A DNA stretch of 64,000 nt. Origin: an uncultured Methanosarcinales archaeon. Lineage in GTDB: Archaea > Nanobdellota > Nanobdellia > Woesearchaeales > GW2011-AR9. The stretch spans positions 1 through 64,000 of the forward strand of contig CAYFJV010000001.1 of assembly GCA_964343575.1 (NCBI GenBank), given 5' to 3'. Of this stretch, positions 58,301 through 64,000 are shown one piece after another. Made by a program: the position numbers. Position 1 is the stretch's first letter. Each line of letters starts with the position of its first letter.

Positions 58301-61300
58301 GAACTATGGGAAGCGGAGCTTTTGAGACGACACTAAAGTCTTTTGCGCAATTATCTGCTGGAAGGGCCGGTAAAAGAATTCTTGTACTTGCTGATGAGAT
58401 CGAAAGCATTACTGAACCAGGCGCTGCGAGTAAAATCATTGCTGCAACGCTTGATTGGCTTACTCGCGGGAAGAATGTTGATGTTATTTTAGTGAGCCAT
58501 CTTGGTGAAGTTTTGGCAAAAGAGTGCCCTCGTGCTCGCATTGATGGAATAGAAGCAAAACAACTGGGGGATAATTTGGAGTTAGTTGTAGAGAGAAACC
58601 CTCGTATTGGTTACTTGGCCAGATCAACCCCACAACTTATTGTTGAGCGTTTGAGTAAAAAACATGAGATGGGGATTGATCCTGAGGAAGGATACTTTTC
58701 TTATTTACTTGAGAAAATGAAAACATAGATTTATTTTACAAAATCATAAGGATTTTTAAAAAACAAAGGAGTGGTACTTTTATGGCAAAGGCAATCAGGA
58801 TAGATCATATTGCAATTTACTTTTCAGATATGGAGGAAGCCAAGAAGTTTTTTTTAGAAGGTTTGGGTTTGCAAGCCTGTGGCGAGTATGGTGACGAGTT
58901 TTTTATGAGTGTGGGCAGCCAGGTTCTTGCAGTGTTTAAAGGAGAGAATAAGAATCAGACCATAAATCATCTTGCCCTTAAAGTTGATGATTTTGAAGGA
59001 GTTAAGCGTCGGCTTGAGGGATTGGGATACAAAATTTATAAGAATGATATGGTTGATGGACCAAATGGAATAAGAATACAACTTGTTGCTTAGCTTGCGC
59101 CTCTTTAGTTTTTCTTCTAACTTCTACTCTCTAGATAGACAGAAGTTACCACGCATCTTCCACTATTGATGTCTTCATCTGTTACAAGAGCATCAAGCAC
59201 CCCGTCACAGATCATGACGCTTCTATCAATTGCACAAAGACTAAAGGTTTTGTCAACTTCTGCGCTGTACATGTATTCAAAAGGTAAGATGTCTTCTGGG
59301 AGAAGTGGGTCTTGACTTCCATCATCTGTGTAGACTAACTCTAAATCTGGAAAGTCTGATCGGACATCTAAGGCAGAATCTATGTCATGAAGGTTTTGGT
59401 AAGCATCGTCTAGCCTCTCTTGAGCAGTTTTTCCATTGACTAGTTGCTCTTCACTAGTTGTATCTGTATCCTCTTCTACTTCTTCAACTTGCTCGGCTTC
59501 TTCTTCTTTCTCTTCAGTTTCCTGTTCGAGCTCTTCTGTTGCTACTTGAAGTTCTTCAAGGATTTCTTCTGTCTCTGAATCTGTTGCAGTGATCTCTTCA
59601 TCTGTTGCTTCAAAACCTTGTTCTTCTAACTCAGTAGTCTCTTCAATGCTACAGCTGCTCAGTAAGATGAGTAGGAAAAGAAGAATGCAGCTTACGATCC
59701 CAATGCCTAATACCTTCATATTCATAGCTTTTTGAAAAATCTCTTTGTTTATAAAGGGTTGGGGAAAAGTATATAAGGGCTTTTTGTTTTTTTGAGAATA
59801 GTTTTGAAGGTTTAAAGCACTCAAAACTTAAAAATAAAAATAGAAAACGAAATAAAAAGAGGTGTCTTTCATGGAACAAAAAATTACTCCTTGGTTATGG
59901 CTTTTGGTTGCTTTAATGTGGCTTCTACCACTTGTTGGTGTAGGAACCAGTACTTGGGGCCCTTGGCTAGCTACTCTTGCAGTTGCAGGTGTAGGAGTCC
60001 TGGGACTTATGGGTAAAGAATAAGTCTAACTTTTTTGTTGGATTATTTTTTACTTTTTTTTCTTTCTCTTTTTGTTTGCTCGCTTTCTTCTTGGTTTCTC
60101 TCTTAGACTAGATAGATCCCTTCTAAGGCTTGTGTGACAATGCCTTGACAGTTTTCCATTTTAGTGATGAGTTCGTGGTCCATGGTGGCTTTTCTAATCT
60201 GGCCTATGCGATCAATGATCTGACCAAAGAAACGAATGAGATCCCCTTCAAGAAGATTGGTATTTTGTAGAAGGTCAAAGAAAGTCTTTCCTTGATAGAT
60301 TGGCTGAATAAAACCAGTGACTAAGTCCATGTTCTCAAACTTTTTTTCTTTGTAGAGCACAGAAGAATTGTTTATTTTGTTTCTGAGTTCTTTATATCCT
60401 TTATTGAGGAACTTCTTTTTAATCTGAGTCTTTTCTCTGTGCTCGTAGACGAGTGTTCCGAGCAGCAGCAAGAGCTTGTATTCATCAAGATCCTTGTAAA
60501 AATCTGTTGCAAAAATCTCTCCAAGAGTAATCTCATCAACAAAGACTTTACTGCTAAACTTTCCTTTCTCAGTGAGTTTCATTTCTTCAGTTAGGAAGTT
60601 GTGCTTTTTGAGCTTCTTTACGATTCTTTTGTAGCGAAACAAGAGCTTGTCAGTTGGAGTTTCTAAGAATTGTTCTCCAAACTTTTGATAAGAGAAAAAA
60701 CTAAGTCGAAGCGTGTGTTCAATTTCTTCTTCGCTACGTTGGTCAATGAGGTTGAGCGCCGTATTTACTGAAAGCTTAAATTGAGATTTTATAGGCTCAA
60801 CATCTTTGTAGGTGAGTTTTTTTACCTGCCAATAATTAAAAGTTGGACGATAAATCATGGAGACGACCATCCCTTCTTTATCAATACCTCGCCGTCCTGC
60901 TCTTCCTGCAATCTGAAAATATTCTTTGGTGTTGAGCAGGCGAAAGTTAATACCATCGTACTTTCTCAGATCTGCAAAGCACACTGTTTTTGCAGGCATG
61001 TTAATTCCTACTGCAAAAGTCTCAGTGGTGTAGAGTACTTTGATGAGTCCTTGAGAGAAAAGATCTTCAACAAGTTCTTTTACTACTGGGAGGAGCCCTG
61101 CGTGATGAAAGGCAATACCAAAACTCAATGCTTCTCTTAGGGTTTGAGTTGAAGGAAGCTTGGTAACTTCGCTTGGCCAATCTTTTATTGCTTTGCTTGC
61201 CTGACTAATGATTTCAGTATTTTTTTTGTAGATCCCTGAGCGCGCAAGTTCTTTTGCTTTTTGTTGACAATCTTTTCTTGAAAAGCTGAAGAAAAGGCAA

Positions 61301-64000
61301 GGGGTTTTTTCTGGACCAAGCTCTTTGAGTAAATCAATATGGTTTGGTTTTGCAATGTGTAGTTTTTGTCTTCCTCTTCCTTTTTTTGTTCTATTCTTAA
61401 AGATCTTATTGTACCTTGGAATCTTTCTGTCCTCTTCAATTGCTCGCTTGATCTTTTTGAGATCATCAGCAAGACCAGTTTCAACATCATAAAAGTAATG
61501 CTTAAGGGGAACTACTCGAAAATCTGAAGTTACTGTTTCTACTTCATGGTGTTTGATTGCTTGAATCCAGCTGGAGAATTCGTGAGCGTTTGGAATGGTT
61601 GCACTCAGGCAGAGAAATCTGACGTTTTCTGGACTGTAGATGATACTTTCTTCCCAAACATAACCTCGCTCTCTATCGTTGATGTAATGTACTTCATCAA
61701 AGACCACGTAAGCAACGTCTTTGACACAGTCATCATCAATGACCGTCATGTTTCTATAGATCTCTGTGGTCATAATGACAATTTTTGCAGTTGGATTGAT
61801 GACAATGTCCCCGGTCATGAGCCCTACATTTTGCTCGCCAAACTCTTCAGAGAAGTCTTTGTACTTTTGGTTTGAGAGTGCTTTGATCGGGGCTGTGTAG
61901 ATGATTCTTTTGCTTTTATCTTTTTGATGTTTGTGGATGATATACTCTGCAATAAGGGTTTTTCCACTCCCGGTTGGAGCTGAGACAACCACAGAGTGAT
62001 TTTTTTCGATCGCTAGAATTGAGTTCTCTTGAAAAGGATCTAGGGTGAGCCCTTTGAATTTCATTGACATATTGGGTTCTGAGAAGGGGAGTTGGGGTTA
62101 TAAGGGTTTCTGTGTTTTCTTTACTGTGTTTTATCTATATAAGCGATAATCAAGCGTTGAGAAATAATTTTGTGTTCTGCGATCCATTTCAAATCTAGTT
62201 AACTCGCCTATGAGTTTGTTAAAATTCCCTGTGCCTGACCATCCGCCGTTTTTCATCCAAGCATCTAAGACAAGTCCCGCTTGGACTTGTGATCTTGTTG
62301 TGTATTCTTTTCCAATGGTAATCTCAATAGATCTTGCTGCTCTTTGAGATGCGATATGGTGGATCTTAAGGAGTGCATGTGTTCTTGCAAACATTTGAAA
62401 CCCACCTTGGCTTCTCCCAGAGACTATGCCTACTTTATCTGAATATTCCCTTATCTCTTGGATAATTTCTTCTTCACCGAATGGGTTGGTTCTAGTGTAA
62501 ACGTGATTAATGCAACTTACGCATCCCATCTCTCTTCCTTGTGCTATTAGCTCTGAATTTTCTGGTTGCCTACCTACAAGGATAAGTTCAGGAAGCTCTA
62601 TTGTTTCAGGTGAAGTTCCTAGTGCGCGAGAAAAATTTCCAGAAACCTTGTTCATTCTACCAGAAAGCATTGGTGTTTTGCCAAAGTGCCTTCATAAAAT
62701 GATTTGCCCGCAATTCTGTGGTTTTTGTGTTTTTTGCTTTAGTCAAGATTCTAATTAAAGAGATCTAAAACGCCACTTTGAGCGAGTACTGCAATGGTCA
62801 GACCAAGAATAATAAGAAAGGAGTAGAGTATTCTGAGCTCGAATGCTTCTGCTTTGAGTTCTTTGTCTTTGTAGCTTTTGATAAAAATAGCATGGTAAAG
62901 AAAAACTCTCCCTCTGATTACTGCTAGAGTACTCACCCGATCACCTCTCATTGGCGGATCCCACTCTTTGTAGTAGGAAGTTTCTTTACTCATAACTTGC
63001 TTAAGAAATTTCAGATACCTTCCATGGATGAGTAAGGATAAACAAAGGAGTACAAAAAAAACAATAAAAAATTTTTCCATTTTTAAGAGAAAGACATCAT
63101 CTTTTCCTTCTTTGCCTTCTTAAGATGGTTTACAAAGGTAATCCACAGTGTTACTCTTACAATGGTACCAACAGTAATGATCACAAAGGCGAATGTGCTT
63201 CCTGCTGCTATAAAGAAAGCACCTGCATTCGTGAAAGAATCTTGCGCTATTAAAAAAGAAGTGATTAAGACTTCTGTAATACTCTTGATGATCGCCGCAC
63301 TGAAGGCAATGTGTGTCCATGAGATTACATCTTTCTTTACTCTGTAGAGTTTTAGAAAGTAGATAATCATTATTGGTGTGTAGATCAGCGCAATCAATGC
63401 TGTTGCCATAGAAAAGCTTAACGTTGTGCTAGGAACAGTTCCAAGAAGAAAAAGAACTGTGGAAATAATGCTTGTAAAAATAGAGGAAATACCTTGCAGT
63501 ATGGCAATCCCTACTAGAACTAACATTATAATCGTAAATGTTGTTTTGCTTGTTTTTTTCGTTTTCATTTTCTATCACCTTCAATTTGATTCAGTCCAAA
63601 TTGGAAGCTCAACCCATCTCTCTGTTGGAGAGTATGTGATTCTTGCTTCTCTACTTGGACAATCATTTGGTTCTATATTAATGATTGTTTCTAAAGTACC
63701 GTCTTGTGGTTGACTCTCACTAAAGGTAAGGTTGTGGTGTTTTCCTGAAACGTCAAAGAACTCTCCATTTGGGTTGGAGTTCCCTTCACTTGCTTCAACA
63801 TTGAATGAAATAGATCGTCCATTGTAGTTGATGTCAGTTGAATGGTTCTTTGTTAAGAAGATTTCATAATCTCTATGTGAAAAAACTCTGCTGCTGGTGT
63901 TCATGTCTATGTAAAATGTGTTTGTATACAGACAAGTTCTATCTGAAAATTCATTCACAATCAGAATCTCCGCATCCACTTCGAATTCTTCTTGGTTTAT

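Follow-up and report, generated by a model that had tools for sequence, protein, structure and literature searches.

Within the window, the whole 64,000-nucleotide stretch of a Woesearchaeales genome that was analyzed, an open reading frame on the minus strand at 60103–62070 encodes a helicase of 655 amino acids, counted from the first ATG. The earlier note had given this protein 653 amino acids over 60103–62064; the reading frame is real, but 62064 is the second ATG. On the evidence of the ORF, Pfam, the PDB, and a structure model, the product is an arch-less DSHCT (COG4581-type, HelY/Mtr4/Ski2 family) SF2 helicase, and the Pfam matches reported before (DEAD, Helicase_C, and DSHCT) were all above cut-off. 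It has the Ski2-like arrangement with intact ATPase motifs: a RecA1 domain (DEAD, residues 12–163, 61582–62037) with complete Walker A and DEVH motifs, a RecA2 domain (Helicase_C, residues 308–395, 60886–61149) with an intact motif VI, a winged-helix segment (residues 462–495, 60586–60687), and a DSHCT helical-bundle, or ratchet, domain assigned by Pfam (residues 498–644, 60139–60579), all on the minus strand. The winged-helix segment contains the site of the arch in Mtr4/Ski2 and aligned colinearly with 6c90. As had been claimed, the arch is missing, with 33 residues from query 462 to 495 versus ~230–380 in full-length eukaryotic proteins, and a Pfam search of the helicase did not find PF13234 or PF21408.

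The PDB matches also agreed with those described earlier, the closest being arch-deleted MTR4 (6c90_A, E = 3.5e-110), with Ski2 at 3e-100 and archaeal Hel308 at 4e-43 or weaker. The structure model had a pLDDT of 92.6 and matched the MTR4 fold with a Z score of 36.8 and an rmsd of 2.5 over 608 aligned residues. In motif I the helicase has the prokaryotic form, APTGSGKT, and not AHTSAGKT, the eukaryotic one. The N-terminal extension of Mtr4, which with F7/F10 binds Rrp6/Rrp47 (PMC10411580), is absent, with 7 residues before RecA1 versus ~60–250 in most full-length Mtr4-like rows. At the columns of the Mtr4 ratchet residues R1030/E1033 (PMC10411580), the helicase has Q and D, and its relatives, bacteria alike, have R or Q together with D. 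Contamination as the source of the gene was rejected, since the flanking genes are archaeal and all 36 genomes of its family (36/36) have the helicase.

The nuclease proposed as its partner is encoded on a different contig (C2:53253–54341) and is likewise a real gene, of 362 amino acids with DNA_pol_A_exo1 and HRDC domains. Its best matches had been given as Rrp6, which held within PDB sequences (113 bits), a consequence of PDB content, but not overall, where bacterial RNase D-like proteins reached 142, 137, and 136 bits. The protein shares with Rrp6/EXOSC10 a DEDDy exonuclease and HRDC, and residues D29, E31, D89, Y154, and D158 were invariant across 50 homologues. PMC2NT (PF08066), the N-terminal Rrp47-binding region of Rrp6 (PMC2018643), was not found in the nuclease, the exonuclease domain of which begins at residue 5; Rrp6 rows P0400 and P0401 have it. 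Searches of the genome for PMC2NT and Sas10/C1D gave no match, but neither did the controls, so these searches carry no weight. The nuclease model matched E. coli RNase D (1yt3) over model residues 2–362 (Z 29.9, rmsd 4.9, 355 aligned), versus a Z of at most 25.8 and mostly residues 1–284 for Rrp6. This structural match, together with the alignment, places an exonuclease and two HRDC domains along the whole length, and the TIGR01388 rnd model covered residues 7–357 at 203.2 bits, below its cut-off of 298.95. The identification as Rrp6 therefore gave way, on architecture and on the lack of PMC2NT, to a probable RNase D-type DEDDy exoribonuclease with two HRDC domains.

Ancestry of the helicase and the nuclease

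The helicase had been called Mtr4-type and placed in the eukaryotic Mtr4/Ski2 branch. Over the core, however, named bacterial relatives reached scores as high as 416 bits, and the top score among 18 eukaryotic proteins was 361. In the helicase tree, a Woesearchaeales clade (100/98) was nested in a 33-row clade (100/99) with bacterial rows from Bacillota, Poribacteria, Omnitrophota, Planctomycetota, Fibrobacterota, Myxococcota, and Wallbacteria, and eukaryotic Mtr4/Ski2 and giant viruses formed a clade of their own (100/100). This bacterial/eukaryotic split recurred with 157 rows and with LG+C20, and an AU test rejected a clade of Woesearchaeales, eukaryotes, and giant viruses (p = 0.009). Under LG+C20, the placement of Woesearchaeales inside the 33-row clade was not resolved, and no donor group was singled out. 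Arch-less forms appeared repeatedly in Omnitrophota, Fibrobacterota, and some Myxococcota and Actinomycetota; loss of the arch is recurrent in bacteria. By these scores and trees, the protein is a DSHCT helicase of bacterial (HelY-like) type and falls outside the eukaryotic branch. It is probably an old resident of Woesearchaeales, acquired early in the history of the order in a transfer that, as we infer its direction, came from bacteria.

The best nuclease tree put Woesearchaeales and Rrp6 in separate clades; their joint clade was not rejected (AU p = 0.198) in what is a weak tree with 5 eukaryote-like rows, its Rrp6 side being restricted by a search for long nuclease relatives that gave 6 proteins. 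The nuclease clade itself was well supported (100/99), and its nearest sampled row came from an unclassified rumen bacterium (95/87). The tests run favor the caveat already attached to the earlier note, that both genes may be bacterial imports. Scanning viral contigs with one protein gave no relative, versus giant-virus relatives in an alignment-based scan. Clusters in the ESM Atlas for helicase and nuclease, taken as leads only, were mainly bacterial.

Distribution and genomic context

Larger samples agreed with the wide distribution of the helicase in Woesearchaeales described earlier: it was present in 131/217 and 208/401 genomes of the order in two samples, and in 1 of 84 from other orders. 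A published archaeal survey described the COG4581 group as exclusively eukaryotic among 294 archaeal and 10 eukaryotic genomes and reported none in its 75 Asgard genomes (PMC10946056); the finding that a helicase of this type is widespread in an archaeal order holds against that result. In our literature search, thin on subscription journals, no publication on Woesearchaeota dealt with a DSHCT helicase or with RNase D.

RNase D was missing from most helicase-positive genomes and was nested within them. The helicase accompanied it in 59 of 60 genomes from 16 families (the union of two samples, 47/47 and 33/34), the sole exception being genome G353, where the helicase was not found. A control, consisting of one gene on 160 of 181 genomes, occurred with the helicase in 21 of 40 cases, equal to the base rate (89/160). 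Four mixed families were all concordant for helicase and RNase D, with a joint chance of 0.011. RNase D almost never occurs without the helicase, so that the link between the two is supported more strongly than in the earlier note, and this nested distribution is new here. Because the genomes are related, the nesting may in part stem from a single joint gain and subsequent loss.

On one metagenome contig (L342), the helicase stop overlaps the RNase D start in a translationally coupled pair, and the two genes are spaced 0.5 kb apart in genome G270 and 1.1 kb apart in G262. Adjacency is nevertheless not conserved: of 80 metagenome loci with RNase D, 2 contained the helicase, versus ~0.7 expected (p = 0.14), and the neighbors of RNase D in these loci were lineage-specific blocks. 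Clustering of 30 helicase loci by neighborhood gave no conserved neighbor, with RNase D in 5 loci picked for that. In bacteria, RNase D-like genes were present in 19/45 helicase-bearing genomes and at none of 80 GTDB helicase loci; these named loci were chosen because cluster look-ups gave names for just 3 of 10 near relatives.

Rrp4, Rrp41, and Rrp42 are present as described, at C1:542670–545069. Some 480 kb separates this exosome operon from the helicase, and the nuclease gene sits on a second contig; the earlier statement that the pair is beside the exosome does not hold. None of the three genes was found in the 30 helicase loci or the 80 RNase D loci. RNase PH subunits occurred in 295 of 301 genomes and the helicase in 132; the exosome being near-universal, there is no co-distribution signal. 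Csl4 was not found in this genome, which is 95% complete. Its four DEAD matches over cut-off were an apparent DEAD-box protein and a Hel308-like half (both by length), the arch-less helicase, and Hef; ASH-Ski2 was not seen among them. No genomic signal ties either gene to the exosome as a cofactor, and the contact parts, F7/F10 of Mtr4 and PMC2NT of Rrp6, are missing.

A candidate RNA trimming pathway

We consider it most likely, with some reserve, that the bacterial-type helicase and RNase D serve one 3′-to-5′ RNA trimming or decay pathway. M. smegmatis HelY, the only HelY with a known activity, is an RNA-activated ATPase that unwinds RNA duplexes 3′ to 5′ (PMC8931766, citing Uson et al. 2015), and by analogy with it and with Mtr4 the Woesearchaeales protein would have 3′-to-5′ RNA helicase activity. 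It would load onto a 3′ single-stranded tail and use ATP to unwind structured RNA, baring a 3′ end from which RNase D would trim or degrade; we infer the common pathway and substrates. With the helicase exposing the end, RNase D would be retained only where the helicase is. Since RNase D is absent from most genomes that have the helicase, the helicase would also act without this partner. The resemblance to Mtr4-Rrp6 would then be shared family ancestry plus parallel pairing, with no minimal nuclear exosome.

A less probable, though credible, account makes the genes two unrelated housekeeping imports, the helicase for general RNA remodeling and RNase D for trimming tRNA or other stable RNA, in which case the nesting would be a historical trace left by their joint acquisition and by the structure of the lineages. 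Unconserved adjacency, the exception G353, the fact that two families (f1 and f14) supplied 35 of the initial 47 genomes with RNase D, and the failure to see the pairing in bacteria all suit this account. It has more difficulty with the concordance of 15/16 families at a base rate of 52% (p ~4e-4 if families are independent), with concordance within mixed families while the control gene stayed at base rate, and with the coupled pair in L342.

It is unlikely that the imported helicase sits on the Rrp4 cap, feeds unwound RNA to Rrp41/42, and replaces ASH-Ski2, while RNase D, where present, does hydrolytic trimming, in a convergent exosome-Mtr4-Rrp6 analogue made of bacterial parts. The genome has an exosome, Csl4 and ASH-Ski2 were not seen in it, the fold match indicates that the arch-less helicase keeps the core by which Mtr4 touches Rrp4/EXOSC2 (PMC10411580), and the many helicase genomes without RNase D make another nuclease partner plausible. 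Against this stand the lack of a co-distribution signal, the lack of exosome genes at the helicase and RNase D loci, the absence of the Mtr4 extension and of PMC2NT, and the nearest helicase relatives, which act in exosome-free bacteria. True archaeal orthologues of Mtr4/Ski2 and Rrp6, whether from a common ancestor with eukaryotes or by transfer to or from them, are highly improbable. MTR4 and Rrp6 were the top PDB sequence matches, eukaryotes plus giant viruses are the sister group of the clade that includes Woesearchaeales (99/91; 84 under LG+C20), and the nuclease AU test gave no rejection; but the AU rejection largely refutes this origin for the helicase, bacterial helicases outscore eukaryotic ones, the helicase is confined to one order (but for 1 of 84 genomes elsewhere) with none reported in the Asgard genomes of the survey, and the nuclease has the architecture of RNase D.

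The pair does not show an archaeal origin of nuclear exosome cofactors. It does fill a gap in what has been published on archaeal Ski2-like helicases: the COG4581 group, eukaryote-only in the 2024 survey (PMC10946056), is present as a lineage of bacterial type in roughly half of the Woesearchaeales sampled. The almost strict dependence of RNase D on the helicase hints, in a way that can be tested, that DSHCT helicases and nucleases of the RNase D family also pair in prokaryotes, which bears on the origin of the Mtr4-Rrp6 partnership and on what HelY-like proteins do in the cell. As a naturally arch-less enzyme of 650 residues, the helicase is a convenient model of the Mtr4 core. It is unlikely, though of interest, that Woesearchaeales assembled anew, out of bacterial components, a machine resembling exosome-Mtr4-Rrp6, with an arch-less HelY-type helicase on an Rrp4-only cap and a helicase-dependent RNase D; if true, its three parts would give a minimal model for the way such a helicase and nuclease became eukaryotic exosome cofactors.

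Among known systems, bacterial HelY-like proteins (COG4581) share DEAD, Helicase_C, and DSHCT, the prokaryotic motif I, and a broad tree region with the helicase, and include arch-less forms of 625–700 amino acids in Omnitrophota, Planctomycetota, Fibrobacterota, and others; the Woesearchaeales clade differs in being archaeal and in a distribution that goes with that of RNase D. A branch farther off holds actinobacterial HelY proper, most members of which have an insert of 140–240 residues. Mtr4 (MTREX/Dob1) and Ski2 have the same four-domain core fold, with RecA domains 42–44% identical, whereas the helicase lacks the arch/KOW and N-terminal extension and differs in motif I, C-terminal end, and clade. 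Bacterial RNase D (E. coli rnd, 1yt3; TIGR01388), with its DEDDy exonuclease and, after it, two helical domains of HRDC type, aligns end to end with the nuclease, although the latter is 25–36% identical, falls under the TIGR01388 cut-off, and forms its own clade (100/99). Rrp6/EXOSC10 shares the DEDDy exonuclease and the first HRDC, with catalytic domains 31% identical, but the nuclease lacks PMC2NT, is RNase D-like in its C-terminal part, and has 362 amino acids versus >700. Euryarchaeal ASH-Ski2/aRNase J (PMC7144898) likewise joins an archaeal Ski2-like helicase to an exoribonuclease with nested distribution, ASH-Ski2 occurring, one exception aside, only with its partner. That system has a COG1202 helicase, a 5′-3′ nuclease, and a demonstrated interaction, whereas the Woesearchaeales genes form a candidate pair; there the helicase is nested in the range of the nuclease, and in Woesearchaeales the reverse holds.

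The DSHCT helicase and its relatives

The helicase is encoded at 60103-62070 on the minus strand of the window, and its open reading frame specifies 655 aa counted from the first ATG. The earlier note had recognized this frame and gave 653 aa by taking the second ATG as the start. Pfam assigned DEAD (residues 12-163), Helicase_C (308-395), and DSHCT (498-644) domains, all over cut-off. The top match among PDB sequences was 6c90_A, an arch-deleted human MTR4 construct (E 3.5e-110, colinear over 8-628), followed by Mtr4 and Ski2, with archaeal Hel308 proteins no better than 4e-43. 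We then predicted a structure from a 66-row alignment (pLDDT 92.6); the model matched MTR4 with Z 36.8 and an rmsd of 2.5 over 608 aligned residues, and Hel308 with Z ~33. The arch site holds 33 residues, and the helicase is missing the N-terminal extension through which Mtr4 is described as contacting Rrp6/Rrp47 (PMC10411580).

Many proteins of 640-800 aa, taken as 50%-identity representatives, scored above eukaryotic Mtr4 against the helicase. Named relatives among the best 80 of 584 GTDB matches came from Bacillota, Poribacteria, Omnitrophota, Planctomycetota, Fibrobacterota, Myxococcota, Chloroflexota, Melainabacteria, and Actinomycetota, and the family is also present in giant viruses. 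RecA core scores reached 416 bits for named bacteria versus 361 bits for the best of 18 eukaryotic rows, which were identified from tree position together with Pfam domains (arch, stalk, and Ski2_N). An IQ-TREE phylogeny of 62 rows (LG+G4), with the root set on three Hel308-like proteins, nested the Woesearchaeales helicases (100/98), 4 of whose 10 rows are unnamed proteins placed by tree position, within a clade of 33 rows (100/99) that also includes 14 named bacteria. A separate clade (100/100), sister to the 33-row clade (99/91), united eukaryotes with giant viruses, and other bacteria fell outside both. The same split was reproduced by FastTree with 157 rows and under the LG+C20 mixture model, the latter without resolution of the branching inside the 33-row clade. 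Constraining Woesearchaeales, eukaryotes, and viruses together was rejected (p-AU 0.009). The helicase has a motif I and a C-terminal end of bacterial type. As arch-less forms occur repeatedly in this family, in several bacterial groups, loss of the arch indicates no special tie to the engineered MTR4 construct. From the nesting in the tree and the confinement to one order, we infer that the helicase is of bacterial source.

The giant-virus DSHCT helicases (loci L150-L229) measure ~720-840 aa, have 107-137 residues at the arch site, and are sister to eukaryotic Mtr4 plus Ski2 with full support. Two proteins within the eukaryotic Mtr4 clade either lack the arch or have a short one, with 27 (P0199) and 110 (P0250) residues at its site; they could represent isoforms, prediction errors, or Mtr4 naturally devoid of an arch. 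In Woesearchaeales, Hel308 itself appears to be split. The N-terminal half, a separate protein of ~220 aa corresponding to positions 1-218 of 739 in NCBIfam PRK02362, lies at L065:5975-6634 (minus) and L066:7045-7710 (minus) in two further loci and at C2:257646-258122 in the present genome (G000), and the later part is matched by frames of 515-570 aa in other genomes. The only match of a 650-aa protein at 56776-58728 on the plus strand of the window is a weak C-terminal one to MutS_V (E 2e-5, under cut-off), and the protein is possibly a divergent archaeal MutS-like ATPase.

An RNase D-type nuclease

The nuclease (362 aa, C2:53253-54341) combines DNA_pol_A_exo1 and HRDC domains, and its residues D29, E31, D89, Y154, and D158 are invariant across 50 homologues. 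The claim that its best matches are Rrp6 holds among PDB sequences, where Rrp6 heads the list with 113 bits versus 85 for E. coli RNase D, but fails against bacterial proteins, which scored 142, 137, and 136 bits in genomes of the helicase's GTDB relatives. The predicted structure (pLDDT 94.6) could be aligned along its full length with E. coli RNase D (Z 29.9 and an rmsd of 4.9 over 355 aligned residues); its match to Rrp6 (Z of at most 25.8) falls chiefly within residues 1-284. TIGR01388 matched residues 7-357 with 203 bits, below its cut-off of 298.95, and PMC2NT, described as the Rrp47-binding domain (PMC2018643), was not found in the nuclease. A 40-row tree placed the Woesearchaeales nucleases in a clade apart from Rrp6, with a bacterial row nearest (95/87); a joint clade with Rrp6 was not rejected (p 0.198). 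By architecture the nuclease is RNase D-type, with its descent less certain.

Distribution and association of the two genes

Across 301 genomes of the phylum, full-length helicase orthologues (E below 1e-100) were present in all 36 of the family to which the present genome belongs, in 95/181 from the rest of Woesearchaeales, and in 1/84 from other orders. A second Woesearchaeales draw, which shares genomes with the first, gave 208/401 (E 1e-42 or better). These tallies take in six genomes marked unpublished (G243, G244, G405, G518, G539, and G567), none of which was RNase D-positive in the searches or used in trees. The sole helicase outside the order, L233 (G147:C14:127032-128924), branches within the Woesearchaeales clade, a position that suggests later transfer or mis-binning. 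A published survey, as far as its account of COG4581 goes, searched 294 archaeal genomes and had the group as exclusive to eukaryotes (PMC10946056).

RNase D was found in 47 genomes of the first draw, all helicase-positive, and in 34 of the second, 33 of them helicase-positive; the union gives 59/60 across 16 families. A DSHCT search of the lone exception, G353, was also without match. As a control we used a patchy gene at 50278-51018 of the window, which we take to encode an AlkD-like repair enzyme, on 160 of those 181 Woesearchaeales genomes that belong to other families. Helicase accompanied it in 21 of 40 genomes (base rate 89/160), and accompanied RNase D in 22/22. Every RNase D genome was likewise helicase-positive in the four mixed-helicase families with readable counts (f4, f7, f31, and f33; joint chance 0.011, families chosen post hoc). 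The two genes lie within 15 kb of each other in 5/47 genomes (G270, 0.5 kb; G262, 1.1 kb; G042, 5 kb; G022, 8.5 kb; G066, 14 kb; p ~0.03, counting four independent cases), and the stop of the helicase gene overlaps the start of the RNase D gene on metagenome contig L342. Counting against a link, only 2/80 unselected RNase D loci had the helicase, versus ~0.7 expected (p 0.14), as does the lack of such pairing in bacteria, where an RNase D-like gene was found in 19/45 genomes and in none of 80 helicase loci.

In genus g39 (L065:4270-11307 and L066:5874-11768), a DEAD-box helicase, the Hel308 N-terminal half, the DSHCT helicase, and RNase D form one 6-7 kb cluster. Between the last two genes lies one of 120-130 aa, in opposite orientation and with no NCBIfam family. 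RNase J lies within a few kb of RNase D and within ~9-15 kb of the helicase in genus g40 (L068) and a related metagenome contig (L349), and 5 kb from RNase D in the present genome.

Exosome, proposed function, and precedent

Rrp4, Rrp41, and Rrp42 form the usual archaeal cluster at C1:542670-545069. Helicase, nuclease, and exosome, which the earlier note had joined, are thus all real, but they are not neighbors: the helicase is ~480 kb from the exosome cluster and the nuclease is on C2. RNase PH subunits are present in 295/301 genomes, so co-occurrence with the exosome is uninformative, and neither the 30 helicase loci nor the 80 RNase D loci contained an exosome gene. The helicase may feed the exosome: the Mtr4 core is described as contacting Rrp4 (PMC10411580), and neither Csl4 nor ASH-Ski2 was found in the present genome (95% complete). 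Descent gives no support to a minimal eukaryotic exosome-Mtr4-Rrp6 system, and we think it improbable that the bacterial-type pair became exosome cofactors by convergence. Rrp4 (L069:9204-10070, equivalent to C1:544203-545069 here) carries a charged C-terminal tail of ~55 residues past the NCBIfam model.

RNase D degrades RNA hydrolytically from the 3' end, and structure impedes it. In the simplest model, the helicase would open structured 3' ends and RNase D would then trim or degrade them, which would account for RNase D being kept only with the helicase. Most helicase genomes are without RNase D, and the helicase therefore has other work.

Neither protein was found described in Woesearchaeota in the literature searched. 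The pair is a new version of known kinds, a helicase and an RNase D of bacterial type in an archaeal order; what is new is the order-wide nesting of RNase D in helicase genomes, with its control gene, and the coupling of the two genes on L342. The model has a precedent in ASH-Ski2, which is described as confined, with one exception, to carriers of aRNase J, and as binding aRNase J (PMC7144898).
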